Shown: positions 5,885 to 38,429 of the stretch, piece by piece
Numbering within the stretch: the first letter of the stretch is position 1
Layout: every line of letters starts with the position of its first letter
Origin: Mosigvirus mar005p1
DNA length: 64,000 bases
Sequence record: OZ035759.1
Reading direction: 5' to 3' (one strand)
Translations under genes and position numbers: made by a program
Notes under the pieces: generated by a model
What the model saw: the letters and a program-made list of their open reading frames with translations, nothing else
Database searches by the model: none
What the model was told of the DNA's origin: nothing

Positions 5885-6406
5885 TCAGTAACCATTATCC
5901 TGACGTTCAAAGTTGTGTTGGTTTTTCAAGTAGTAAAGTTTAAAGATTTCTTCTGCAGTGAGTCCAAGACCCTGGAACATATTCAGAACAAAGTGGAGGA
6001 TATCAATCATCTCGAATTTAATTTCAAGCTGGTCTTCAGGGGACAGTTCATCGATACGACGATTACGATATTCGGCATGTTGTGCTTTCCAAGGCTTCCA
6101 TACAGAGCTAGCGGCTTTTTCACCATTGCTCATACCACCAAGTGAAGTCAGCAGTTCACGGAATTCATCATCAATATAATCTTTCTGATTACGCAGCCAA
6201 TCAACAACATCACCAGCAGTAGCCAATTCATCAGGATGTTTGTTATGTTCAGGCTTGTCATTTGCCAGACGAACCTGTAAAGATTTCTGCATATCAAGCA
6301 TTACCTGCAGTGGGTCTTTATCTTCGTGAATCAGAGCATTAAAATAAGCTTCTTCTGCTTTATCAACACCAGAAATAAGTTGTGAACATTCGTTAAAGTG
6401 TGCCAT
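5885..6406 (-). CDS. 56: dCTP pyrophosphatase (gp56)
   Basis: 173 aa; colinear with T4 gp56 (MAHFNEC...LYYLKN...ARQDNGY). Confidence 0.88.
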   Translation of the reverse strand: MAHFNECSQLISGVDKAEEAYFNALIHEDKDPLQVMLDMQKSLQVRLANDKPEHNKHPDELATAGDVVDWLRNQKDYIDDEFRELLTSLGGMSNGEKAASSVWKPWKAQHAEYRNRRIDELSPEDQLEIKFEMIDILHFVLNMFQGLGLTAEEIFKLYYLKNQHNFERQDNGY

Positions 6407-7752: not shown

Positions 7753-8247
7753 TCACAACTTATTAATATTTACTTTAATTCGCTTTCTTTTCTTGGAAGG
7801 AATTTGTTCTGGACCTTTATTTACGACTGCACCTGTAGTTGTTCCTGATGCAATAGCTTGAGGACTGCCGCCTGAATCACCAGCAACCATATCCTCAAAT
7901 AAAGGGAGTTCTTTAAATATTTCTTTCTGTTGTTCTTCAGTAATGTTATAGCGTGAAGCTACAGCACTCCAGGCAGACATCATTGAGGCCATTCCATTAA
8001 GACCCGGAACAGTGCTCATCATTCGCTTCATTGAACGAACTGAAGCATGAAAAGGTGTATAAGCCGCTTTCTCTTCAGGAGTGGAAGGACGTTTAAGAAC
8101 ACTTCCACGTTCATCGATGATTTTGGCTTCATATGCTTTCCATTCGGTAAAAGGTTTTTGCATTAGTCGAATAAACTTATATGCGTAAACAGAATCTATT
8201 GTAGTGTTAATAATACCCATAGGTACCTCCTGAGTATATTTAATCAA
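7753..8247 (-). CDS. hypothetical protein (61.1 region)
   Basis: 164-aa ORF. Confidence 0.55.
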   Translation of the reverse strand: MIKYTQEVPMGIINTTIDSVYAYKFIRLMQKPFTEWKAYEAKIIDERGSVLKRPSTPEEKAAYTPFHASVRSMKRMMSTVPGLNGMASMMSAWSAVASRYNITEEQQKEIFKELPLFEDMVAGDSGGSPQAIASGTTTGAVVNKGPEQIPSKKRKRIKVNINKL

Positions 8248-8437
8248 TCACAAAGATCGCTTTATCACCGTTCGCATCTGTGACTTCATATGTAGTGCCT
8301 TCATACTGTGGAATATTCCAAATTACACCGTCATTAGCTTTTACGCTAATACGGCATTGGTGTTTTGAAACAACTTCATAATCTTCAAAACTTGTAAAAA
8401 CACTAATTTTAGAACCGGTGCAAATTGCAGTAGTCAT
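8240..8437 (-). CDS. hypothetical protein
   Basis: 65-aa ORF, overlapping stop/start with neighbours. Confidence 0.5.
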   Translation of the reverse strand: MTTAICTGSKISVFTSFEDYEVVSKHQCRISVKANDGVIWNIPQYEGTTYEVTDANGDKAIFVID

Positions 8438-8438
8438 T

Positions 8439-9098
8439 TTAACCTCGATTCATAAATGCATTAAATATTTGGTCATCAACAGAAATTTCTAATTCGACTT
8501 CAATTGCTTCGGCCTTTTCTTCAGGTGGTAATTCGTATCCACACACTACAATTTTTTCATCGATATCAAAATATACAGAAGCAATACGATTAATGTTACT
8601 TTCAGTTAAGTCTAAATCAACATCAACATCTTTTTGACCTACACTTAAAGGATAACTAATACGGGTTATTTTATTATCTTTAACAAAGAGTCCACCAACA
8701 TACTCTGTACTACGTTTAAAGTTTACACGTTTCCGAATTGAAAGATATGATGCATCTTTACCATGAGCTCGGCTCATAGGACATAATGAATAGCTAGAAT
8801 AAGAGATGTCAAATCCTACACCTTCAATATGAGCCAACGTGTCATGATTAAACCAATTATAATCATATGCCAAATCCATTATATTGTAATATGTGAAAGG
8901 CACAGGATTAACATCATATGTTGTACCTTTAAAATCTGCCCAGGCAACGATTTCATTATCTTTAACAATTACAAAAATTACACCAATATGATATCCGTTA
9001 TTATTTTCGTTCGGCGTTATATTATAACATTGTGCATTAGGAAATTTACCATATTTAAATGGTGCGTTTTTGTGCATATAATAAATCATATTATTCAC
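8439..9098 (-). CDS. hypothetical protein
   Basis: 219-aa ORF. Confidence 0.55.
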   Translation of the reverse strand: MNNMIYYMHKNAPFKYGKFPNAQCYNITPNENNNGYHIGVIFVIVKDNEIVAWADFKGTTYDVNPVPFTYYNIMDLAYDYNWFNHDTLAHIEGVGFDISYSSYSLCPMSRAHGKDASYLSIRKRVNFKRSTEYVGGLFVKDNKITRISYPLSVGQKDVDVDLDLTESNINRIASVYFDIDEKIVVCGYELPPEEKAEAIEVELEISVDDQIFNAFMNRG

Positions 9099-12876: not shown

Positions 12877-13239
12877 TTAAAAGAATTTAAATTTTTTCTT
12901 GGTCCGTTCATTAAAAGCTTGTTGTACTTGCATTGTAACACATTTTTCAACATGTGGTGCAAGTTCTGCTTTTCTGTCCTGGTCAAGAACTGCAAAGTCC
13001 ATTACGATTTTACCATCAACCCAGTCTAGTTTTGTAATATAGACTATATGATGAGAACCGTCTTCAAGCGTAATCAGAATCTCTTGAATGACATTTTCCA
13101 TTGCCGAACGGATAATTTTAAGAGATTCATTAAACACTCGTTCTTTGCGAATGTCTTCCCCTTCCGAAGAAGGGGATTCATCAACGATTTCTAGATTTAA
13201 ATCATCGAGATTATTCATCGAAATCTTCCATTTCGTCAA
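12877..13239 (-). CDS. 40: hypothetical acidic protein at gene 40 position
   Basis: 120-aa ORF between 41 and uvsX; assignment positional. Confidence 0.45.
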   Translation of the reverse strand: MTKWKISMNNLDDLNLEIVDESPSSEGEDIRKERVFNESLKIIRSAMENVIQEILITLEDGSHHIVYITKLDWVDGKIVMDFAVLDQDRKAELAPHVEKCVTMQVQQAFNERTKKKFKFF

Positions 13240-14383
13240 GGTCGTTTTCTATATCTGCTGCAGACGGAGCATCAGAAGTTTTAACCGGAACTTTAGTTGT
13301 TGCTTTGCAATTAATAAGGTCATTAACAGCGTCATCAACTTCTTTAATAGAAGAGATAGCACCTAGTTTATATTTAGTTTCAATTGCATCTCGGAAAGGT
13401 TTGTGTTTAAACAACGGTCCCCAGAATTCTACACAATCAGTAGCTTTAGCACGCCATGATTTTTCTTCACGAATCATTTCGCCTGTTTCTTCGTCAAGGA
13501 ATTCGCGAGCATACCACCCGGCTTTAGGCTTAACTACAAATCCAATTTCAGTTGCCATTTCTAACAAGCCACTGAATGGGTCGATACCACCATCAAAATT
13601 AACCGTGATTGGGAAAGTAGATTTTTCTTTAACGGTACGAGATTTTTCCGCTTTCAACGTGAAGTCATAACCGGTCAATTCTGTACCTTCTTTAACCTGA
13701 CGTTTAGAGATAAAGAATACAGTGTTAGCAGAATAAAGAATACCTGTACCACCACCCATAATCTCTTTAGGATATAGTCCGCCGATTTCCATTGCGGTAT
13801 GGTTGATTGCAACACATGGAATATCTTTAATAGTCAGATAAGGAGTCACAATGCGGAACAGAGATTTAAGTGCCTTAGCACGAGACATATCACCTACGAC
13901 TTTCTCGTTCAATGCATCTTCGGTTTCTTTCTTAGATGCAGTATTACCGATTGAATCGATAAAGATAATAACTTTATCACCGCGTTCAATAGCGTCAAGC
14001 TGATTAGTCATATCAACTTTAAGTTGTTCGACGGACTGAATTGGTGTATGAACTACACGGTCTAAATCAACACCCATCGAACGAAAATAAGATTCTGAAG
14101 CACCGAATTCCGAATCATAGAACAAACAGATTGCATCTTTATATTTCTTCATATATGCTGCAACCATGGTCAGCCCAAACAATGTTTTAAAATGTTTAGA
14201 AGGAGCAGCAAAAATAGTTAAGCCTGATTGCAACCCAGCATTCAGTGCACCACCTAATGCAATATTCAACATCGGAATACGAGTAGGGACTTCATCACGA
14301 TTATTAAACAGCTTAGACTTAGTCAAGTCTGCAGTCATTTTAGAAGTAGAAGCTTTAATCAGACGAGATTTTAAATCAGACAT
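13211..14383 (-). CDS. uvsX: UvsX recombinase (RecA-like)
   Basis: 390 aa; RecA-fold P-loop region; size matches T4 UvsX (391 aa). Confidence 0.88.
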   Translation of the reverse strand: MSDLKSRLIKASTSKMTADLTKSKLFNNRDEVPTRIPMLNIALGGALNAGLQSGLTIFAAPSKHFKTLFGLTMVAAYMKKYKDAICLFYDSEFGASESYFRSMGVDLDRVVHTPIQSVEQLKVDMTNQLDAIERGDKVIIFIDSIGNTASKKETEDALNEKVVGDMSRAKALKSLFRIVTPYLTIKDIPCVAINHTAMEIGGLYPKEIMGGGTGILYSANTVFFISKRQVKEGTELTGYDFTLKAEKSRTVKEKSTFPITVNFDGGIDPFSGLLEMATEIGFVVKPKAGWYAREFLDEETGEMIREEKSWRAKATDCVEFWGPLFKHKPFRDAIETKYKLGAISSIKEVDDAVNDLINCKATTKVPVKTSDAPSAADIENDLDEMEDFDE

Positions 14384-14481: not shown

Positions 14482-15030
14482 TTAACGAGCCCATTTGATA
14501 ATTTCTGTAATCAAATAATTACGTTCGCTTGCATTAAATCCTATAACTTTGTTAGCACCATCATGATTAAGTAATTGATACGTTTGGATTTCGTTATGAA
14601 TTGCAAACTCTTCAAAATGTGAAATGACTGTATTAAAACCGAATGAAGACAAAGTAATAAGGTCGTCTTCAAAACTTTCAGTCATTTCGTTACGTGTTAA
14701 AATAATTGTGAACACATCATGGTTTTGGCAAAGACGAATATAATCCTGTTCATAAACGTCAAGAACCGAGTCCGCATCTTGTCGAATACGTCCGTAAACC
14801 CAGTTACTAATATATCCACGGTCTAATAGATAAATCTTAGTAGGGTCTAAATAATTCAACATCGTTTCGAAACAGCCAACTTCGTTTCGAGACTTAACAT
14901 CGAAACGCCCATCAACTGTTCGTTTAGGGAAATCAATCTTTACATATCTTTCACTAATTTCCATTATGTCATTAATGAAAGTTGTTTTACCAGCATTATC
15001 CGGGCCATCTACTAAAATAATTTTAGCCAT
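14482..15030 (-). CDS. P-loop nucleotide/nucleoside kinase-like protein (thymidylate-kinase fold)
   Basis: 182 aa; P-loop VDGPDNAGKTT and DRG(Y) motif; not present at this locus in T4. Confidence 0.55.
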   Translation of the reverse strand: MAKIILVDGPDNAGKTTFINDIMEISERYVKIDFPKRTVDGRFDVKSRNEVGCFETMLNYLDPTKIYLLDRGYISNWVYGRIRQDADSVLDVYEQDYIRLCQNHDVFTIILTRNEMTESFEDDLITLSSFGFNTVISHFEEFAIHNEIQTYQLLNHDGANKVIGFNASERNYLITEIIKWAR

Positions 15031-15031
15031 T

Positions 15032-15931
15032 TTATTCCTCGATTACGACATCTTCGTATTTAGGTATATTATACGGCGAAGAAATTAAAGCATTAAAGTA
15101 GATGAACTCGCCAAGACCTGGATGGAATACTTCTTCAGGATTTTCGAAATATTGAATCTTCGGACGTCCTTTAAGAATTTGATAGTACTCAGTTTTAGTT
15201 GGTTTAAAAATTCGAATCAGCGCTTCTTCAGGATACTTATTTCTGTCGAAGCTATTATTTGGATCGGTTATATAAAGCGGTTGACCTAATTGAATTGCAC
15301 ATTCAACCACTTGTTCAAAACGATAACATGGGTCACTAATTCGAAATGGATGAAAAATACCATCTAGATGAATAGGAGCCAAATCACCTACAAGACGCTG
15401 CATGATGGAAGGACGTATAACTTTCTGGGTTATGATAATCTTATTACCATCGGCACCCGCGTTAACCAGCACTTCCTTTTGACGTTTATTCAACACAGTA
15501 GTTTGAAGTGAACGATTAACAGACAACATGTCGGTTTTTAAGAATTCGTCAATATAAAAACGTGGTTTATTAGGGTCTGCAGTGATATTGAAATTGAATT
15601 CTACATCAAAAGCGCCGTCATATCCAGTGATATCTGTGATTAGAAAATCACAATCATAATAAGCAATTAATGAATCAACCACAAATTCATTTTCAGACCA
15701 AAAATATTTACGAGTGTTATACGCGTTATCTTTATACCATAATGGAACAAACTTAAATTCCGGGAAAAGACGTTCACATTCTTTAATATCAGATGCATTA
15801 CGTGGATATGTAATCACATCACCCGGATTAGCACGGTGCAAATGAAGTTGGAAGTTGCCATCCTTAAGGATAGCATACTGTCCAGTTTCATAAGACCGCA
15901 TACTCAAGATTGGTACGCGGAAAATAGCCAT
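15032..15931 (-). CDS. hypothetical protein occupying the beta-glucosyltransferase slot (candidate DNA glycosyltransferase)
   Basis: 299-aa ORF between kinase and gene 42; no recognisable similarity to T4 Bgt; function inferred from context only. Confidence 0.45.
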   Translation of the reverse strand: MAIFRVPILSMRSYETGQYAILKDGNFQLHLHRANPGDVITYPRNASDIKECERLFPEFKFVPLWYKDNAYNTRKYFWSENEFVVDSLIAYYDCDFLITDITGYDGAFDVEFNFNITADPNKPRFYIDEFLKTDMLSVNRSLQTTVLNKRQKEVLVNAGADGNKIIITQKVIRPSIMQRLVGDLAPIHLDGIFHPFRISDPCYRFEQVVECAIQLGQPLYITDPNNSFDRNKYPEEALIRIFKPTKTEYYQILKGRPKIQYFENPEEVFHPGLGEFIYFNALISSPYNIPKYEDVVIEE

Positions 15932-16647
15932 TAGTCAAGGAATCCTTTAACATAATCAAAATCACGTTCAAACACATGGGCACTTACCATGGTATGAGTA
16001 TAATCACCAACTTCTACACCACATTCGTTAGCGATATAATGAAGTAATTTTCCTTGGAGATAAAAATCTAACTGCATAACAACAGCACAGTTCTGAGAAC
16101 GCATATGACAGTGGGTATAAAGCTTACCATCACGAATATAATAAGTCACTGAGTCAGTACATGGATATTCAAGCGTTTCGTCCGAATCAAGCAAAGCCTG
16201 ATCAGAACTTTCTAGAATTTGGAACACAACTCTTCGAGAGTTAGGCTTCTCTTTAAGTTCTTTTAGAAGAGCTGGTAATTGGGCCGCAATGCGAGGACCA
16301 TAGAAAGTGTTGAAGTTCGCCGGCAAAACATCTGATTTTGGTTTAGAAATAAATTTAGCGACATTAGGATATGCCTTAAACGCTTCTTCTGCGTTGGTAC
16401 CACCAGAAATCATAAACTTCCAGAAGTCTTCGGCATATTCATAAGAGATGCGGTTAATACGTGGGTCGGTCATTTTGAATGATGATGGAGTGTCAACAAC
16501 TACTGTCATAGACCCAATTTCATTACAACGTCCAATACGAGAATCAGTTACGAATTCCGGGTTTTCTAAAATTTCACGATTGACTGCTTTAAATGCGGCT
16601 TGAAAATCTGCGGCTTTGATATATTTCATTGTGTTATGTTTTCCCAT
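15931..16647 (-). CDS. 42: dCMP hydroxymethylase homologue (thymidylate-synthase fold)
   Basis: 238 aa; position after uvsX; ...CHMRSQNCAVVMQLDFY... resembles the T4 gp42 core as recalled. Confidence 0.7.
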   Translation of the reverse strand: MGKHNTMKYIKAADFQAAFKAVNREILENPEFVTDSRIGRCNEIGSMTVVVDTPSSFKMTDPRINRISYEYAEDFWKFMISGGTNAEEAFKAYPNVAKFISKPKSDVLPANFNTFYGPRIAAQLPALLKELKEKPNSRRVVFQILESSDQALLDSDETLEYPCTDSVTYYIRDGKLYTHCHMRSQNCAVVMQLDFYLQGKLLHYIANECGVEVGDYTHTMVSAHVFERDFDYVKGFLD

Positions 16648-16654
16648 GTTTACC

Positions 16655-16685
16655 TCAATACAATTTATTATATACTCAATTCGTA
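16655..16685 (-). promoter_or_regulatory. candidate MotA-dependent middle promoter upstream of gene 42
   Basis: Minus strand AGCTTTA (MotA-box-like) -11 nt- TATAAT. Confidence 0.35.
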
Positions 16686-16689
16686 AAGC

Positions 16690-16929
16690 TTATTTGAATT
16701 TCTTGGCAATGTTGATATAACGTAAAGCTTCAGCATCGATATTTCCAAGAACACTATGAAGAAATGCATCAGCATAGTATTCCAATTGAACAGGTTCTTT
16801 AATCACTTTAGCCGCTTTAGTTTCAAACAGGCCCATCAGGGCCTTTTTAAGAATTTGTTCGTTGCTGTTAATTTTAATAGTCAAAATCTCTTCATTAAGT
16901 TGGTGGTTAAAAGTTTTTCTAGAAATCAT
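16690..16929 (-). CDS. hypothetical protein
   Basis: 79-aa ORF. Confidence 0.5.
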   Translation of the reverse strand: MISRKTFNHQLNEEILTIKINSNEQILKKALMGLFETKAAKVIKEPVQLEYYADAFLHSVLGNIDAEALRYINIAKKFK

Positions 16930-18086
16930 TCCGGGTACCTCAAAGCGTCATCAGAGTTAGTTATATCAATAATAGATATAGAGTTTTCTGCTAACCCGTT
17001 TTTAGATAATTGACGTTTATAATATCTTTCACAATATGTACACGTCGTCCCGCAGATCTCATTAGCACAATCGAAATCTGGATGTCTGAACCACCTTTTT
17101 TCTAAAAAGCCATCTAACAAAGAGGTTTCAATATTTACTGTATGTGAAAACTCAGTTTCGTTTTCAAGAGTGAAAATAGTCTCTAAAGGCTTCCACAGTT
17201 CTAACAAATTACCTTCAAACTTTTCAGAAGCGTATGCTTCAAGAACTTTCAAAATGTAGTCTGTGCTACCTGTACGTCCTGAAACTTTGAATTGAGTGAT
17301 ACCAATATCATTATAAAGTTTCAAATCTTGAGGACGAACAAAACGAGTTCTCAACCAGTTAAATGGGTCTGTATCACGAGCTTTAATACAGTGTTGCATT
17401 GGATATCCGTTTAAGGATTTAGCATCATCAGCTGTAACATCAGTACTATGGAAAATATAGCAAGAGTCACGATAGCTACAATGTGTTGTATACCCTTTAC
17501 CAGCATTAGAACAGAACTCATTTACAAGAACTTCAAATATTATATTGTTCTTATTGCAAAACTCTGCTGCACGCTTCAGGAAAGAAACTGAACGGTTCTT
17601 ATGAATTCCACAGCAGACCTTTTTGATATTATATTGGTCATGCAAGTATTTGATTTGAGTTACAGCATCGACATGTAGAATTGTTGAAACTTCAATCTCA
17701 ATGTCTTTATTGACTTCACGAACAATTTCCATAACAACAGGGTTAGCGATAGTAATACGCCATACGCCTATTGACCAAAGATACTGAACATAATCCTGAA
17801 TAGCTTTCTTCTTCCACTCAACTAGTTCTCTTTTTGAACCAGGATTTATCGTGTTGAGTGTATAGTTAAAGCAAATACCTAATTCGTTACAACGTTTAAC
17901 GTAATCTTCTAACATCTTTTTGTCAACGTCAGGAAGCCTAAAATCAGGTCTGGCTGCTACAAAAGCCATTTCTCTTGTAGAGCCGTATACTTCATTTATC
18001 AAGCTATTAGGATAAGTTTTATTGAGCTCTACGATTTTATCAAGAAGAGCTAAATCAAAATTCGTTCCGATTTTAAAAGTATTCAT
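16926..18086 (-). CDS. hypothetical Cys-rich protein (possible metal/Fe-S binding), modification-cluster member
   Basis: 386 aa; C-terminal C-x4-C-x3-C-x2-C (CANEICGTTCTYC) plus several other Cys. Confidence 0.55.
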   Translation of the reverse strand: MNTFKIGTNFDLALLDKIVELNKTYPNSLINEVYGSTREMAFVAARPDFRLPDVDKKMLEDYVKRCNELGICFNYTLNTINPGSKRELVEWKKKAIQDYVQYLWSIGVWRITIANPVVMEIVREVNKDIEIEVSTILHVDAVTQIKYLHDQYNIKKVCCGIHKNRSVSFLKRAAEFCNKNNIIFEVLVNEFCSNAGKGYTTHCSYRDSCYIFHSTDVTADDAKSLNGYPMQHCIKARDTDPFNWLRTRFVRPQDLKLYNDIGITQFKVSGRTGSTDYILKVLEAYASEKFEGNLLELWKPLETIFTLENETEFSHTVNIETSLLDGFLEKRWFRHPDFDCANEICGTTCTYCERYYKRQLSKNGLAENSISIIDITNSDDALRYPE

Positions 18087-18147
18087 TTTTTTTTTTGCAT
18101 CCCACGTTAATTGATGCGATGGTTTTTTGCAGGTCTTACTTAAATTA

Positions 18148-18549
18148 TTATAGATTCGGTTTATACGATTTAAATGTTTCGAATTCGCCTTTATTCATAA
18201 GAGCTTTGAATTCGTCAGGACGCATAGCTTTGTCGTCGATAATCCAATCATATACTGGTTTATGTGTTAGCAAATTATGGTACTTCAATCCAATGTTTGC
18301 TAAGTTCTGAATCAGACTCGGGAGAATGTCAATTGCTATACGACCAGGACCTACTGACTTCATACCGCGAGCAGTGTAAAGCGTTATGGTATGCCCTGCA
18401 TCATACAGGGCATTAATGGCAGACACCATTTCGACGTCCGGCTTGAAGTTCACGTAATCACGATTGTTATTCCACTCTGTTATACAATCATCGACATCAA
18501 AACAAAGATTAAGCATGTTTTCTACACGGCGCATTAGATTCGTTCCCAT
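18148..18549 (-). CDS. HAD-superfamily phosphatase
   Basis: 133 aa; N-terminal DxDx(T) motif FDVDDCIT. Confidence 0.6.
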   Translation of the reverse strand: MGTNLMRRVENMLNLCFDVDDCITEWNNNRDYVNFKPDVEMVSAINALYDAGHTITLYTARGMKSVGPGRIAIDILPSLIQNLANIGLKYHNLLTHKPVYDWIIDDKAMRPDEFKALMNKGEFETFKSYKPNL

Positions 18550-20219
18550 TGATGAGTGATATCGCCACCGATTGGACGATAGGAAACACCAGTTTCTTTA
18601 TCAGTTAGTACCCATTTACCAGGATTTTTTGTAATAAGAGTAGCCGTTACAGGTTCTGCTACGTCATAACTAATAGAGCCGTCCTGAAGTACACGGCCCA
18701 TGTTACGTAATTGCTTAGTCAGAAGTTCCATACCTTTATAATATGCGGCTACCGCTTTAAGTGGATTATTCTTGAAATAACCACCTAATGCAATCCAGAT
18801 AATTGCCACTGCCAAATGATGATACTCGTTAAACGAACTCATCTTTCCATATTTGTAAACTAATGGATTGATGTTAATAGTCACATTACAAGTTGTTTCA
18901 TCAATAGTAAACTGTCCCCAGGTCGGATTAGCGTTGAATTCATCATAACCTGAAACAGCGTAAAGCACTTTAGCTTCATCATACAATTTTGGTCCGTAAA
19001 TCTTGGTTTCACCAAAATATCCACGAGGGTCGATAAACTTGACTTCGCCATTATCAGTAATCATAGTATTACTGAAGTTAGGGTCACCATGAATAACAGA
19101 GTACTGTCCCTGAGAACGGTTATGATAACGAATAAGGTGTTCTAAAGCTTGTTTCAGCATTGGCTTCAGACGTCCAATCTTAGTGTAGTTCACATGTGTG
19201 ATTTTACCAAATGAATCAATCAGCGGTTGAATGCTTTCACAACGATCAATAACTTTCGTATAGAATTCTTTAGTGAAATCACGACGGACAGTTTCAGGAC
19301 TTACAAAATAAGTGTCTGTGCTGAATTTCAGTGCATCTAAAATTGCATCAACAATTTGTGGACGAGCAAGACTTGATTTGGATTTAATATATTCAAATGC
19401 CGGCTTACCTTTAATGCGTTCCATTTCAAAGTTATTTTCATTAACAGAAACTAACTGAGGAACTGAATCTGATTTCACTTTAAGATACCACGAAATCTCA
19501 TCTTTCTGAAGAGCTCGACCCTGTTCGGTTAATGCGAATTTAGTTACAGTTTCTTCGCCAATTTCAACTGCATTAAAACTACGATTAAGTTCACGAACTT
19601 CATGAGCCTTTTCAAGTTTAGGCATATCACCTAAATCAATTAGATTCATAAGCTCTGATTTATTGAATGCGCCACTGTAAAGGAATTCTACGAAATCACG
19701 TCCTTTGCAGTATTCATGAATTTCCTCATCAGTAGAACCCATGTAGAATTCCCAGTCTTTGAACTGATAAATTCCTACAACATTACCGCCTGTTGCACCT
19801 ACATTAGTGATATTTTCACCGTCGAAATTATATCGACATTCGTCACCCTTAACATAGATTGCGTTAACATTCCAAGACCATGAACCAAAATCGGGAATAA
19901 TATCACACCAGTTAACAATTACGTTATGGCCGTCTAAATCTTTGTGTAATTTGGCAAGAGCATAAGCAGAACCATACGCTTCATCAACTGTACGAATAGT
20001 CACATTGAACCCTTCTTGCTCACAATAAGCTCGAACAGTTTCAGCAAATTTTGAATGAACTACTACAATAATTTCATCTGCGCCAAGGTCAGAATAAATT
20101 GTATACAAATTGCTCAGAATAGTGTCTTGTTTATAGTTAACAAGCACCTTAGGAATATGATGCGTTATTGGATACAAACGAGTTGCCAGCCCAGCACCAA
20201 GAATAACAGCTTTTTTCAT
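18534..20219 (-). CDS. bifunctional sugar-1-phosphate nucleotidyltransferase / kinase-like phosphotransferase
   Basis: 561 aa; N-terminal ILGAGLATRL...PK.L (RmlA/GlmU-type NTase); C-terminal VIHGDPNFSNTMI (APH/choline-kinase-like). Confidence 0.65.
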   Translation of the reverse strand: MKKAVILGAGLATRLYPITHHIPKVLVNYKQDTILSNLYTIYSDLGADEIIVVVHSKFAETVRAYCEQEGFNVTIRTVDEAYGSAYALAKLHKDLDGHNVIVNWCDIIPDFGSWSWNVNAIYVKGDECRYNFDGENITNVGATGGNVVGIYQFKDWEFYMGSTDEEIHEYCKGRDFVEFLYSGAFNKSELMNLIDLGDMPKLEKAHEVRELNRSFNAVEIGEETVTKFALTEQGRALQKDEISWYLKVKSDSVPQLVSVNENNFEMERIKGKPAFEYIKSKSSLARPQIVDAILDALKFSTDTYFVSPETVRRDFTKEFYTKVIDRCESIQPLIDSFGKITHVNYTKIGRLKPMLKQALEHLIRYHNRSQGQYSVIHGDPNFSNTMITDNGEVKFIDPRGYFGETKIYGPKLYDEAKVLYAVSGYDEFNANPTWGQFTIDETTCNVTININPLVYKYGKMSSFNEYHHLAVAIIWIALGGYFKNNPLKAVAAYYKGMELLTKQLRNMGRVLQDGSISYDVAEPVTATLITKNPGKWVLTDKETGVSYRPIGGDITHQWERI

Positions 20220-20260: not shown

Positions 20261-20404
20261 CTAGTTAAAGCATTCATACTTTGCTTGTAGTCCAATCATA
20301 ATCCATCCAATTACAAGTGTTGGAATCATTACTGGAGCCGTTAAGCTCCAGTAGATAGTCATGACAAGCATCAATAGTAAAAGTCCTATTGTTATTGCTT
20401 TCAT
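20261..20404 (-). CDS. small hydrophobic peptide (47 aa)
   Basis: ORF below track threshold; ATGA overlap with SIS gene stop; two TM-like segments. Confidence 0.3.
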   Translation of the reverse strand: MKAITIGLLLLMLVMTIYWSLTAPVMIPTLVIGWIMIGLQAKYECFN

Positions 20405-21036
20405 TGTTCGCCTCGTAACATGGCACCTAGTGCACCGCCTGGATGGAACTTAAGGAAATCATTAGAGGTAAATCCACGTTCAGACGAAAGGTTGATAGCG
20501 AACGTATCGATAAGCGCTAACAACAATGTAGTAGACATTGTCGGAGCTAAAGAGTTCTCGTCAACTTCTACCGCGATACCGGTACAGAACGTATAATCAA
20601 AAAGAGCTTCGTATTCTTGTGGAATGTCAGGGTTACAATGTAACAGAATCTGTTTAACCTGAGGACGAATCATACGAAGATGCTTAGCAACACCTATCAT
20701 TTCTTCAGTCTTACCAGAACGACTGATGTGAACTAATACATCATTAGGTGCAATAAATCCTGCGTCGCCATGAGAATAATGCCCAGTGTTCAAGTACATA
20801 CTCGGGATACCGAGTGAAGCAAATGTCTCAGAAGCTTTAGTTGCGATATTAGCGTTCTTACCAACACCTGTAATAATTACACGACTTTCATAATTACTCA
20901 GTCCAGGGCGACGAAGAGTTTCAAGAATAGCATTATATCGGGCCGGGTTTTGACTAATTACTTTAGCCATAGTGGCAAGAGATGAAGCTTGTTTTACGAT
21001 TGCGTCAATAGCGATAGTGATTGGTGTAGTTTTCAT
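20401..21036 (-). CDS. SIS-domain sugar-phosphate isomerase (arabinose-5-P/phosphoheptose isomerase-like)
   Basis: 211 aa; SIS motifs GVGKNANIA...VHISRSGKTEE. Confidence 0.7.
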   Translation of the reverse strand: MKTTPITIAIDAIVKQASSLATMAKVISQNPARYNAILETLRRPGLSNYESRVIITGVGKNANIATKASETFASLGIPSMYLNTGHYSHGDAGFIAPNDVLVHISRSGKTEEMIGVAKHLRMIRPQVKQILLHCNPDIPQEYEALFDYTFCTGIAVEVDENSLAPTMSTTLLLALIDTFAINLSSERGFTSNDFLKFHPGGALGAMLRGEQ

Positions 21037-36144: not shown

Positions 36145-36615
36145 TTAATCATGTTTCCACACCCCATCGGTATTTGACCAAAGTCGCTGGTTATCTGATC
36201 CTCGCCACAGCTTTTTAGTCGGAAGATTTTTCTCATACTTCCCATCAATAATAACATCAACATATTTAAGCATTTCTAGTTGTTTAATATCTTCAAACTT
36301 ATATCCTGTCCACAACCAAATGCTTTTATTTGGATAAAGATTTTTTACTGTTTGAACAATGCAATGAATAACATCTCGGTTATCAGGATAGAGAGGGTCA
36401 CCTCCGGTTATAGTCAATCCTTCTATATAATCATTATTCAAACATTCAATTAATTGTTCTAGTGTCTCTCTAGTGAATGGAACACCATTTCTAGCATTCC
36501 ATGTTGATTTATTATAACACCCTTCGCATTTATGCAAACAACCCGTAACGAAAAGAACGACCCTGCATCCGGGGCCATTCACAAAATCGCAAGGATAAAA
36601 TCTATCATAATTCAT
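36145..36615 (-). CDS. nrdG: Anaerobic ribonucleotide reductase activating protein NrdG (radical SAM)
   Basis: 156 aa; Cys-rich radical-SAM region GCLHKCEGCYN; directly downstream of nrdD. Confidence 0.85.
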   Translation of the reverse strand: MNYDRFYPCDFVNGPGCRVVLFVTGCLHKCEGCYNKSTWNARNGVPFTRETLEQLIECLNNDYIEGLTITGGDPLYPDNRDVIHCIVQTVKNLYPNKSIWLWTGYKFEDIKQLEMLKYVDVIIDGKYEKNLPTKKLWRGSDNQRLWSNTDGVWKHD

Positions 36616-38429
36616 TGGTGTTTAACCCTATGCATGATTTCTTTATTTTTACCGAGATTAAATCCGCGTTCGTTCGGATTTCCCAAATAACCGCATGTTC
36701 TTCTTATGGTGTTCATCTTTTTAGGATCAGTTTCTCCGCAAACTGAACAAACAAATCCGTTTTCAGTAGGAGTCATTTCATGGGTACTTCCGCATGTAAA
36801 ACATTTATCTACTGGCATATTAACACCAAAATAATCTAAATGTTGTGCAGCATAATCCCATACAGCCTCAAGGCCCTTTAAGTTATTTTTCATATCAGGA
36901 AGTTCAACATAAGAAATGTGACCACCTGTCGCAATGAAATGATATGGCGCTTCACGAGAAATCTTTTCAAACGGAGTAATATTTTCTTCTACTGAAACAT
37001 GGAAACTGTTAGTGTACCAGCCTTTATCGGTAACATCCTTTACATTTCCGTATTTTTCTGTATCGAGTTTACAGAAGCGATAACAAAGGTTTTCAGCAGG
37101 AGTAGAATATAAACTAAAAGCAAATCCGGTTCTTTCAGTCCACTGTTTAAGATGAGCATTCATTTTAGTTAAAATTTCTTGTCCAATATCACGACCGACA
37201 AGAATATTCAATTCGTGAATACCAATGTATCCCAAAGACACTGAACTTCTACCATTTTTAAATAACTCAATTATGTCATCATCAGGTTTAAGACGAACCC
37301 CGAATGCACCTTCTTGGTAAAGAATAGGAGCAACAGTAGCTTTAACTCCTTTTAAGGAACTAATTCTACACATCAAGGCTTCAAAACACAGATCCATTCG
37401 TTCATTAAATAGCTCAACAAATTTCTGTTCATTGAACTGTGTTCCAATATAAGAATCTAATGCGATGCGAGGAAGATTCAGTGTTACAACGCCAAGATTA
37501 TTACGTCCATCAAGAATTTCATTACCAGTCGAATCTTTCCATACGCTCAAGAAACTACGGCAGCCCATTGGAGAAACTGGAACTGAAGAACCGGTAATAG
37601 CTTTATTATTCTTAACCGAAATAATGTCAGGATACATTCTTTTGCTTGCACATTCTAACGCAAGTTGTTTAATATCATAGTTCGGATCGTCTTTATAAAG
37701 ATTAACACCTTCTTCAACGAACATAACAAGCTTAGGGAAAATAGGAGTTATTCCATCACGACCAAGACCTTTAATGCGGTTTTTAAGAATTGCCTTCTGA
37801 ATCATTCGTTCAGTCCAATCGGTTCCCGTACCAAATGTAATTGTTACAAAAGGAGTTTGTCCGTTTGAACTAAAGAGAGTATTTACTTCATATTCATAAG
37901 CTTGGAATGCGTCATAGACATCTTTTTCTGTTTTAGATTGAGCATAATTCAGAATGTCTGGTATTTGCCATTTTTCTGCATCTTCAACATGTTTAGCGTA
38001 TGTGCGTTTAACATAAGGAGAAAGAACTTTATCTACATTAGCAAAAGTCGTTCCGCCGTATTGATGGGAAGCAACCTGTGCAGTAATTTGTGCCATAATT
38101 GCAGTAGCAACACCGATTGATTTAGGAGTTTCAATCTGTGCATTACCAAGCTTAAATCCATTCTCAAGCATCCCCTTTAAATCTACTAAACAGCAATTAG
38201 TAAAAGGAAGAGCAGGGGAATAATCAATATCGTGCACGTGAATAATTCCGCTTTCATGCGCTTTCATAATAAAAGACGGGACCATATTTTTGGCAATGTG
38301 TTTAGACACAATACCAGCCATAAGGTCCCGTTGAGTTGGAAAAACACGAGAATCTTTATTAGCATTCTCGTTTAAAAGGTCTTTATTAGTTTTATGAATT
38401 AATCCTTCAATTTCTTTTTCAATTGTCAT
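36612..38429 (-). CDS. nrdD: Anaerobic ribonucleoside-triphosphate reductase NrdD
   Basis: 605 aa; C-terminal glycyl-radical motif RRTCGYLG and Zn-ribbon CFTCGS...CSVCG. Confidence 0.92.
   Translation of the reverse strand: MTIEKEIEGLIHKTNKDLLNENANKDSRVFPTQRDLMAGIVSKHIAKNMVPSFIMKAHESGIIHVHDIDYSPALPFTNCCLVDLKGMLENGFKLGNAQIETPKSIGVATAIMAQITAQVASHQYGGTTFANVDKVLSPYVKRTYAKHVEDAEKWQIPDILNYAQSKTEKDVYDAFQAYEYEVNTLFSSNGQTPFVTITFGTGTDWTERMIQKAILKNRIKGLGRDGITPIFPKLVMFVEEGVNLYKDDPNYDIKQLALECASKRMYPDIISVKNNKAITGSSVPVSPMGCRSFLSVWKDSTGNEILDGRNNLGVVTLNLPRIALDSYIGTQFNEQKFVELFNERMDLCFEALMCRISSLKGVKATVAPILYQEGAFGVRLKPDDDIIELFKNGRSSVSLGYIGIHELNILVGRDIGQEILTKMNAHLKQWTERTGFAFSLYSTPAENLCYRFCKLDTEKYGNVKDVTDKGWYTNSFHVSVEENITPFEKISREAPYHFIATGGHISYVELPDMKNNLKGLEAVWDYAAQHLDYFGVNMPVDKCFTCGSTHEMTPTENGFVCSVCGETDPKKMNTIRRTCGYLGNPNERGFNLGKNKEIMHRVKHQ

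Follow-up and report, generated by a model that had tools for sequence, protein, structure and literature searches.

The U32 protein and the glycosyltransferase of the arabinosyl-5-hydroxycytosine cluster

The DNA of phage RB69 contains mono- and di-arabinosylated 5-hydroxycytosine (5hoC) and not arabinosylated hydroxymethylcytosine (Lee et al., NAR 2026, PMC13326640; Lee et al. 2026 in the following). Its thymidylate synthase (TS) homologue gp48 was demonstrated experimentally to be a flavin-containing 5-hydroxy-dCMP synthase that takes the oxygen atom from O2, and UDP-arabinofuranose (UDP-Araf) is derived from ribulose 5-phosphate (Ru5P) by an isomerase, an AfhE-like kinase/uridylyltransferase and an AfhF-like phosphatase (Lee et al. 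2026). RB69 gp46:47 was named "arabinosyltransferase 1" from structure prediction; the same paper leaves the level of the first arabinose transfer, nucleotide or DNA, unresolved. Together with RB69p050, gp79 of phage DLP3 and the Afh cluster of phage HY126 (Lee et al. 2026; He et al. 2026; Mahler et al. 2025), it represents the closest described system to the locus analysed here, which lies in a stretch of 64,000 nucleotides (the window) from Mosigvirus mar005p1 (OZ035759.1). Escherichia phage ChristianSchoenbein (Bas46), an RB69-related Mosigvirus, shares 98.6% identity with the region. The genes are those of the RB69 cluster in a near-identical phage, and both the organisation and the prediction of a GT-B glycosyltransferase (GT) of 299 amino acids (aa) agree. 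The two open reading frames (ORFs) under study, of 299 and 386 aa, are parts of this published Mosigvirus (RB69-like) arabinosyl-5hoC DNA hypermodification cluster. An original prediction had located both exactly, on the minus strand, but called them unassigned, although they already appear as RB69 gp46:47 and RB69p050 in Lee et al. 2026. We propose that the 386-aa protein, a U32-family protein that appears to be an iron-sulfur (Fe-S) enzyme, is on balance probably a prephenate-dependent, O2-independent hydroxylase of a pyrimidine nucleotide or of DNA cytosine. The core of the locus comprises:

15032..15931, minus strand: compact GT-B glycosyltransferase of 299 aa, predicted first arabinosyltransferase on the 5-hydroxyl of 5hoC; orthologue of RB69 gp46:47, DLP3 gp79 and Thanatos TH1_063
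15931..16647, minus strand: TS homologue, flavin/O2-dependent 5-hydroxy-dCMP synthase
16690..16929, minus strand: 79-aa ORF (PHROG 8601), its start overlapping the U32 stop codon
16926..18086, minus strand: U32-family predicted Fe-S protein of 386 aa (RB69p050), putative prephenate-dependent, O2-independent pyrimidine C5 hydroxylase

Enzymes of the U32 family carry Fe-S clusters and have been linked to hydroxylation in which prephenate, rather than O2, donates the oxygen; the basis for prephenate is labelling for UbiU/V and genetics for RlhA (PMC10990095, PMC5727448). With RlhA (23S rRNA ho5C2501) and TrhP (tRNA ho5U34) the window protein shares the U32 domain, three aligned Fe-S cysteines and, as proposed, a 5-hydroxypyrimidine product. 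The similarity is remote only. The window protein is shorter (386 aa versus 653 and 453), its fourth ligand is displaced, an extra family-specific C-x4-C-x3-C-x2-C site is present, and instead of RNA it would act on a deoxynucleotide or on DNA. In the case of UbiU-UbiV versus UbiI/H/F, and of TrhP versus TrhO, one product is made by two non-homologous hydroxylases, one of the U32/prephenate type and one dependent on flavin and O2. The corresponding phage pair would be U32 and the TS-type synthase, the O2-dependent partner being, unlike in those systems, a TS-fold enzyme. The phage U32 protein would moreover combine two cysteine sites in a single polypeptide, compared to one cluster in each half of the UbiU-UbiV heterodimer.

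Pfam Peptidase_U32 (PF01136) covers residues 94-286 of the 386-aa protein with 42.2 bits, the gathering cutoff being 22.4. Structure comparison, which had been suggested as a check for GT-A/GT-B or U32-like folds, showed the TIM barrel of the solved U32 protein Mk0906 for the 386-aa protein and a GT-B fold for the 299-aa protein. Searches of PDB sequences with the 386-aa protein and its family profile yielded spurious matches only. Among the E. coli enzymes, the family profile matched RlhA best (82%, E 1e-5), followed by TrhP (16%), UbiU (5%) and UbiV (0.4%). The C-terminal C-x4-C-x3-C-x2-C cluster that had attracted attention is present as CANEICGTTCTYC (C340-x4-C345-x3-C349-x2-C352), and all four residues belong to a set of nine cysteines, with C158, C192, C203, C209 and C233, that do not vary among 53 homologues, the most distant with 46% identity; C340/C345/C349/C352 form a family-specific second site. 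C203/C209/C233 align with C169/C176/C193 of UbiU, C169/C176/C192 of RlhA and C170/C177/C193 of TrhP (E. coli), the experimentally defined [4Fe-4S] ligands of these enzymes (PMC6747719). The earlier suggestion of a metal or Fe-S protein is thus supported by family membership and by three cysteines on known ligand positions. The window U32 protein is 99.5% identical to that of RB69. Across genera, no protein of the cluster is conserved as uniformly as U32 (82-89%, versus 46-72% for the GT and 67-91% for UvsX), which exceeds UvsX in Proteus, Providencia and Shewanella phages. Judged from sequence, such even conservation would imply either strong constraint or recent horizontal spread.

The TS homologue had been interpreted as gene 42, a dCMP hydroxymethylase. 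With PDB 9iqc it shares all but 5 of 238 residues, and besides the catalytic Cys it has N in place of ThyA D169 and D in place of ThyA N177, a D169N/N177D signature published for flavin/O2-dependent 5-hydroxy-dCMP synthases. Based on this near-identity and signature, the gene encodes a 5-hydroxy-dCMP synthase, and consequently the sugar acceptor is 5hoC and not hydroxymethylcytosine, as had been assumed. Two large phage contigs carry a Flavodoxin_2 gene (FMN-dependent NAD(P)H oxidoreductase-like) that immediately precedes the signature-bearing TS homologue (L037:4715-5275, L038:4739-5293); a dedicated flavin reductase for the flavin-dependent synthase is plausible.

The 299-aa ORF sits at the place of T4 beta-gt, between gene 42 and uvsX, and this synteny, pointed out previously, agrees with Thomas 2018. 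No match at E <=0.1 was obtained in Pfam, nothing meaningful in NCBIfam or PDB sequences even with a 55-sequence profile (the PDB matches were spurious), and PHROG 3891, a family of unknown function, was the only hit; by family hidden Markov models (HMMs) the protein falls outside CAZy GT4 and Pfam Glycos_transf_1. Its fold consists of two Rossmann-like domains separated by a cleft. The closest known enzymes include T4 alpha- and beta-glucosyltransferases and GT4-type GT-B enzymes; fold comparison gave scores of 17.4 for sucrose-phosphate synthase, 16.7 for BshA, 16.0 for PimA, 14.2 for the phage HY126 GT (9iqz) and 13.2 for T4 alpha-GT. T4 beta-GT (GT63) was absent from the top 60 fold matches, in line with the earlier remark that the ORF lacks Bgt similarity, which holds for its sequence as well. 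Since the fold matches GT-B while family HMMs fail, the protein is a compact GT-B enzyme that is an orphan by sequence, which independently confirms the prediction of Lee et al. 2026. Hence the statement that neither ORF has a fold assignable from sequence was correct for the 299-aa protein and incorrect for the 386-aa protein; likewise, the idea that one or both are glycosyltransferases survives, as a prediction, for the former and fails for the latter, a U32 protein. The 299-aa protein is likely a minimal GT-B enzyme that transfers the first arabinofuranose from UDP-Araf onto the 5-hydroxyl of 5hoC. Taken together, the observations underlying the original prediction were confirmed and its interpretation was partly supported. 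Residues 13-23 of the window protein form the invariant N-terminal motif SYETGxYxxLK of its family (GT299), which is echoed by LYETGFYDFLK at residues 37-47 of a protein of the TET-associated glycosyltransferase (TAGT) family (L031:7098-8000) and may be a shared acceptor- or donor-binding element. That TAGT-like protein was rejected as a GT299 homologue (hhalign 1.3%), the 11-residue motif alone being in common.

Chorismate mutase linkage and partners of the U32 gene

A Pfam-valid chorismate mutase (CM) is encoded by the gene that overlaps the stop codon of U32 in Enterobacter phage Entb_45. A CM above the Pfam cutoff was also found beside U32 in Klebsiella, Yersinia, Pectobacterium, Providencia, Serratia, EcS1 and Shewanella Thanatos phages, and in the Thanatos phages U32 and CM have relocated together to a new position. 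The phage CMs share invariant Arg, Lys, Glu, Ser and Gln residues, which correspond to the AroQ active site. CM occurs in 56 phage records; among the matches listed, these are T4-like phages of U32-carrying lineages with no Mosigvirus, and the annotated ones overlie TS-homologue or peptidase features. On viral contigs unrelated to the window, the neighbour of U32 is a DAHP synthase or a fusion of DAHP synthase and CM, each domain of which exceeds its Pfam cutoff. Overall, CM was detected in 23 of 47 U32 loci and in none of 34 U32-less GT loci (Fisher p = 2e-7, relatedness uncorrected). CM and the DAHP-synthase/CM fusions provide prephenate, which U32 hydroxylases use as oxygen donor; their adjacency to U32 in many phages is new here. 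DAHP synthase, alone or CM-fused, was observed directly beside U32 at L064:8399-9430, L067:7290-8354, L068:8323-9384 and L003:9145-9891.

CM has been lost in Mosigvirus and at least in Klebsiella phage Clarke_MM3 and a 168,532-bp Klebsiella-type contig. The 79-aa ORF of the window was considered as a CM and rejected, showing no Pfam or NCBIfam match and 0.16% by hhalign against the phage CM profile, whereas syntenic genes elsewhere pass. It belongs to another small family: its homologue in Yersinia TG1 is an extra ORF located between U32 and CM, further matches are found in Pectobacterium and Serratia 92A1 phages, and it may encode a U32 accessory protein. Use of prephenate for carboxy-SAM by a CmoA-type route was also rejected, as no methyltransferase-type family match was found among the cluster genes scanned.

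U32 homologues with 45-58% identity are abundant in metagenomic phage contigs beside nucleotide-metabolism genes; the neighbours of distant U32 genes elsewhere include dCMP deaminase, dNK, NT5C, Tmk and a TAGT. In four contigs of PolIII type, the Pfam-less protein encoded directly upstream of U32 is a GT299 homologue (hhalign 100%, E 7e-39), a Tmk-like kinase is present and no TS homologue is found nearby. This protein of ~330 aa had also been considered as a UbiV-like U32 paralogue (0.1%, compared to 100% for GT299). On other large contigs the reverse holds: distant GT299 homologues there have a signature-bearing TS homologue and a kinase as neighbours, without U32. To survey this pattern, 52 GT-seeded and 32 distant U32-seeded loci were sampled from IMG/VR; the resulting counts are not phylogenetically independent and absence of TS or U32 was judged within 6-10 kb of flank. 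Both the TS type and U32 accompanied the GT in 15/52 loci, TS only in 32/52, U32 only in 3/52 and neither in 2/52, both of the latter on contigs of <=4.5 kb. Among the distant U32-seeded loci, a GT was located within 1-6 kb in 23/32, a CM was present in 10/32 and a signature-bearing TS in 0/32. If U32 and the TS-type synthase were alternative suppliers of the hydroxylated acceptor, the observed partner pattern of the GT-plus-kinase module would result. The partner pattern across viral contigs is new here.

On contig L031, U32 lies directly upstream of a Pfam-valid TAGT and, because the TAGT comes next, fills the place of an O2-dependent hydroxylase. This resembles phage systems of TET and TAGT, in which the hydroxyl-making enzyme adjoins the DNA glycosyltransferase, with U32 in place of the Fe/2-oxoglutarate dioxygenase; the window GT is itself not a TAGT (hhalign 1.3%). 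The cluster (L031:3777-12179) encodes Gly_transf_sug, a Tmk-like kinase, a GT299-like protein, U32, the TAGT, dUTPase/DCD and UDP-galactopyranose mutase, without a TS homologue, which suggests putative DNA glycosylation with a galactofuranosylated 5-hydroxypyrimidine. A radical SAM/SPASM protein is encoded beside the kinase-GT-U32 module on contigs of PolIII type (L032:3980-5011, L033:3972-5000, L002:1-249, L004:12160-13185). L004, a contig with a dockerin/GH43 gene as well, has two U32-family genes (8001-9098 and 13227-14360, the second with hhalign 99.4%) among NT5C, dNK, nucleoside deoxyribosyltransferase and the radical SAM gene; these may represent a UbiU/UbiV-like pair acting on nucleotides.

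Full-text searches revealed no paper tying U32 or CM to these phage modifications, the texts of He et al. 2026 and Mahler et al. 2025 not being covered. Lee et al. 2026 cite both, yet give U32 no such role and mention neither the CM linkage nor the alternation of U32 and TS. These two texts aside, an O2-independent Fe-S hydroxylase role for this U32 protein appears not to have been proposed in the literature covered.

Proposed mechanism and alternative roles

We lean towards the following mechanism as the overall best explanation of the folds, conserved cysteines, linkages and distribution, from which we infer the substrate, the chemistry and the physiological role. The isomerase, the kinase/uridylyltransferase and the phosphatase would make UDP-Araf for the 299-aa GT. 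The U32 protein would use prephenate as oxygen donor and, independently of O2, hydroxylate a pyrimidine nucleotide or DNA cytosine at C5, acting as the anaerobic counterpart of the neighbouring flavin/O2-dependent 5-hydroxy-dCMP synthase. Prephenate would be supplied in related phages by their own CM beside U32, and Mosigvirus, having lost CM, would depend on PheA/TyrA of the host. In this way, U32 would let a phage encoding NrdDG and dCTPase keep making 5hoC DNA in the anoxic gut: the window encodes NrdD and NrdG, so that the phage is equipped to replicate without O2, and since the annotated dCTPase function removes dCTP, the phage would depend on the modified nucleotide. The sole established 5hoC source of these phages needs O2, though their hosts live largely without it, and an O2-independent hydroxylase would, if true, resolve this contradiction. 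The carriage of shikimate-pathway genes by phages would then be explained as well, and U32/prephenate chemistry would reach from RNA and quinones to DNA.

For a more general reading the probabilities are evenly balanced, namely that phage U32/prephenate chemistry makes 5-hydroxypyrimidine DNA precursors with U32 and the TS-derived enzyme as interchangeable front ends of the GT-plus-kinase module, that many phages add CM or DAHP-synthase/CM fusions to raise host prephenate, and that U32-only phages carry undescribed glycosylated 5-hydroxypyrimidine DNA made without O2. A large set of uncultured phages with U32, GT and kinase but without a TS homologue would be likely carriers of undescribed DNA hypermodifications, which bear on restriction/CRISPR evasion and on the choice of phages for therapy in anoxic sites. 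The small, soluble, single-chain U32 protein could also permit in vitro reconstitution of U32 hydroxylation.

Several points weigh against the proposed hydroxylase and its GT partner. No U32 enzyme in the literature has had its direct hydroxylase activity reconstituted, and in the literature covered neither the U32 hydroxylase role nor the GT has biochemical or genetic support. RB69p050 is merely tabulated as "sugar or heterocycle reductase" and not discussed, and purified DLP3 GTs, assayed one at a time, were inactive on 5hoC DNA (Lee et al. 2026); U32 may already have an assigned role in He et al. 2026 and Mahler et al. 2025. The fourth canonical [4Fe-4S] position (CX6CX15CX3/4C) is Ala/Arg in the alignment of the 386-aa protein; by sequence, the invariant C192 or C158, or else C177, may replace this ligand. 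A six-frame HMM scan detected no CM anywhere in the 64-kb window, and at least two distant U32 loci with at least 7 kb of flank have no GT. Finally, E. coli Dhakaviruses are without U32 despite the gut host in common. Acinetobacter is a strict aerobe; its phage DLP3 has neither U32 nor CM, and no Acinetobacter phage is among the U32 matches, though 57 carry the GT. A strict tie of U32 to facultatively anaerobic hosts was nevertheless rejected as only partly true, since the Dhakaviruses break the pattern and the aerobe/anaerobe correlation is consequently not strict.

Among the alternatives, it is possible, if rather unlikely, that the first arabinosylation takes place on the mononucleotide before replication, with the GT acting on 5hodCMP and the adjoining Tmk-like kinase phosphorylating the bulky product, a departure from the post-replicative mode of T4. 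Most GT299-family loci, those of the non-T4 phages L031-L038 among them, have such a kinase, 5hodCMP is already handled by a separate gp1-type dNMP kinase of the phage, and the GT is unusually small; the inactivity of the individual DLP3 GTs on 5hoC DNA and the transfer level left undecided by Lee et al. 2026 would also fit. On the other hand, the characterised phage base glycosylations are all post-replicative according to the abstract of Lee et al. 2026, acceptance of an arabinosylated dNTP by the polymerase has to be assumed, and the Tmk-like kinase could merely serve 5hodCMP.

A role of U32 on the sugar side, as a reductase or other enzyme of UDP-arabinose biosynthesis or sugar tailoring, is improbable. 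It is suggested by the Bas46 record ("putative enzyme involved in UDP-arabinose biosynthesis"), by the reductase label in Table 1 of Lee et al. 2026 and by the position of U32 between sugar-activation and base-modification genes. However, isomerase, AfhE and AfhF already account for the route from Ru5P to UDP-Araf (Lee et al. 2026 summary), DLP3 makes tri-arabinosyl-5hoC without any U32, distant U32 loci retain the GT and not arabinose genes, and the linkage to CM and DAHP synthase has no rationale in pentose activation. We give similarly little credence to the view that U32 hydroxylates host or phage tRNA (TrhP-like) or 23S rRNA (RlhA-like) and tunes translation, unconnected to DNA modification. 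The sole characterised U32 enzymes acting on nucleic acid do act on RNA, RlhA is the best profile match, and prephenate dependence would explain the CM linkage equally well. Against an RNA target speak the embedding of U32 in a DNA-modification operon and its position adjacent to or overlapping a GT299-family gene in the 23 distant viral loci mentioned above, the three GT-seeded loci with U32 as the only partner (the GT lacks both partners on two short contigs only), the other U32 neighbours from dCMP deaminase to TAGT, and the fact that E. coli already has RlhA and TrhP.

That the 299-aa protein is instead a UDP-pentose pyrophosphorylase activating the sugar is quite doubtful. Thanatos TH1_063, whose Thanatos-2 copy is 47% identical to the 299-aa protein (E 1e-84), was published to yield a UDP-xylose mass peak in vitro from UTP and xylose-1-phosphate. 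This evidence is one end-point assay by liquid chromatography-mass spectrometry, the fold is GT-B and not that of a nucleotidyltransferase, and a dedicated nucleotidyltransferase/kinase with the activation role already assigned is encoded two genes away, which together make this a weak rival; the negative transfer assays of the Thanatos paper used unmodified C acceptors, not 5hoC. A true collagenase-like peptidase, as the family name and the GenBank labels 'peptidase' and 'collagenase-like protease' would have it, can practically be dismissed for the 386-aa protein, given that no catalytic peptidase residues are defined for the U32 family, that its characterised members are Fe-S hydroxylation factors, and that nine invariant cysteines and a nucleotide/shikimate gene context speak against it.

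Further cluster genes and the U32 start codon

The order on the minus strand is UvsX, Tmk-like kinase, 299-aa ORF, TS homologue, 79-aa ORF, 386-aa ORF, HAD phosphatase, nucleotidyltransferase/kinase, SIS isomerase and DNA polymerase. The stop codon of the TS homologue overlaps the start of the 299-aa ORF in TAATG, and that of the 386-aa ORF overlaps the start of the 79-aa ORF in ATGA. The further features of the window are:

5885..6406, minus strand: dCTPase-like protein, gp56-type, also in the Bas46 annotation
14482..15030, minus strand: Tmk-like nucleotide kinase of 182 aa (PHROG 761)
18086..18096, minus strand: homopolymer of 11 A running into the U32 start codon
18148..18549, minus strand: HAD-type phosphatase, AfhF-like (PHROG 1238), arabinose-1,5-bisphosphate to arabinose-1-phosphate, role according to Lee et al. 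2026
18534..20219, minus strand: bifunctional sugar kinase and nucleotidyltransferase, AfhE-like (Pfam NTP_transferase and a kinase-like C-terminus), making UDP-Araf, role according to Lee et al. 2026
20401..21036, minus strand: SIS-domain arabinose-5-phosphate isomerase (Pfam SIS, PHROG 5670)
36145..36615 and 36612..38429, minus strand: NrdG activase and anaerobic ribonucleotide reductase NrdD, also in the Bas46 annotation

Homologues of the Tmk-like kinase adjoin the GT in L031-L038 and in most IMG/VR loci. The SIS arabinose-5-phosphate isomerase is missing from the clusters of two Klebsiella phages (L011, L020) and of Dhakavirus CLB_P2 (L009), whose nucleotidyltransferase/kinase is merely 43-44% identical to that of the window; these clusters may rely on another sugar or on another route to the precursor.

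The A-run at the U32 start codon is 11 nucleotides (nt) long in the window; in seven further Mosigvirus genomes, where the flanks hardly vary, it measures 11, 9, 8, 7, 7, 6 and 5 nt. Its length shifts the spacing between a Shine-Dalgarno-like GGGA/GAGA and the ATG from 7 to 13 nt and sets the frame of an upstream ATG, resulting in a small upstream ORF ending in ATGA, an in-frame extension or an out-of-frame overlap. With homopolymer sequencing error as a caveat, the run may represent slippage-based tuning of U32 expression.

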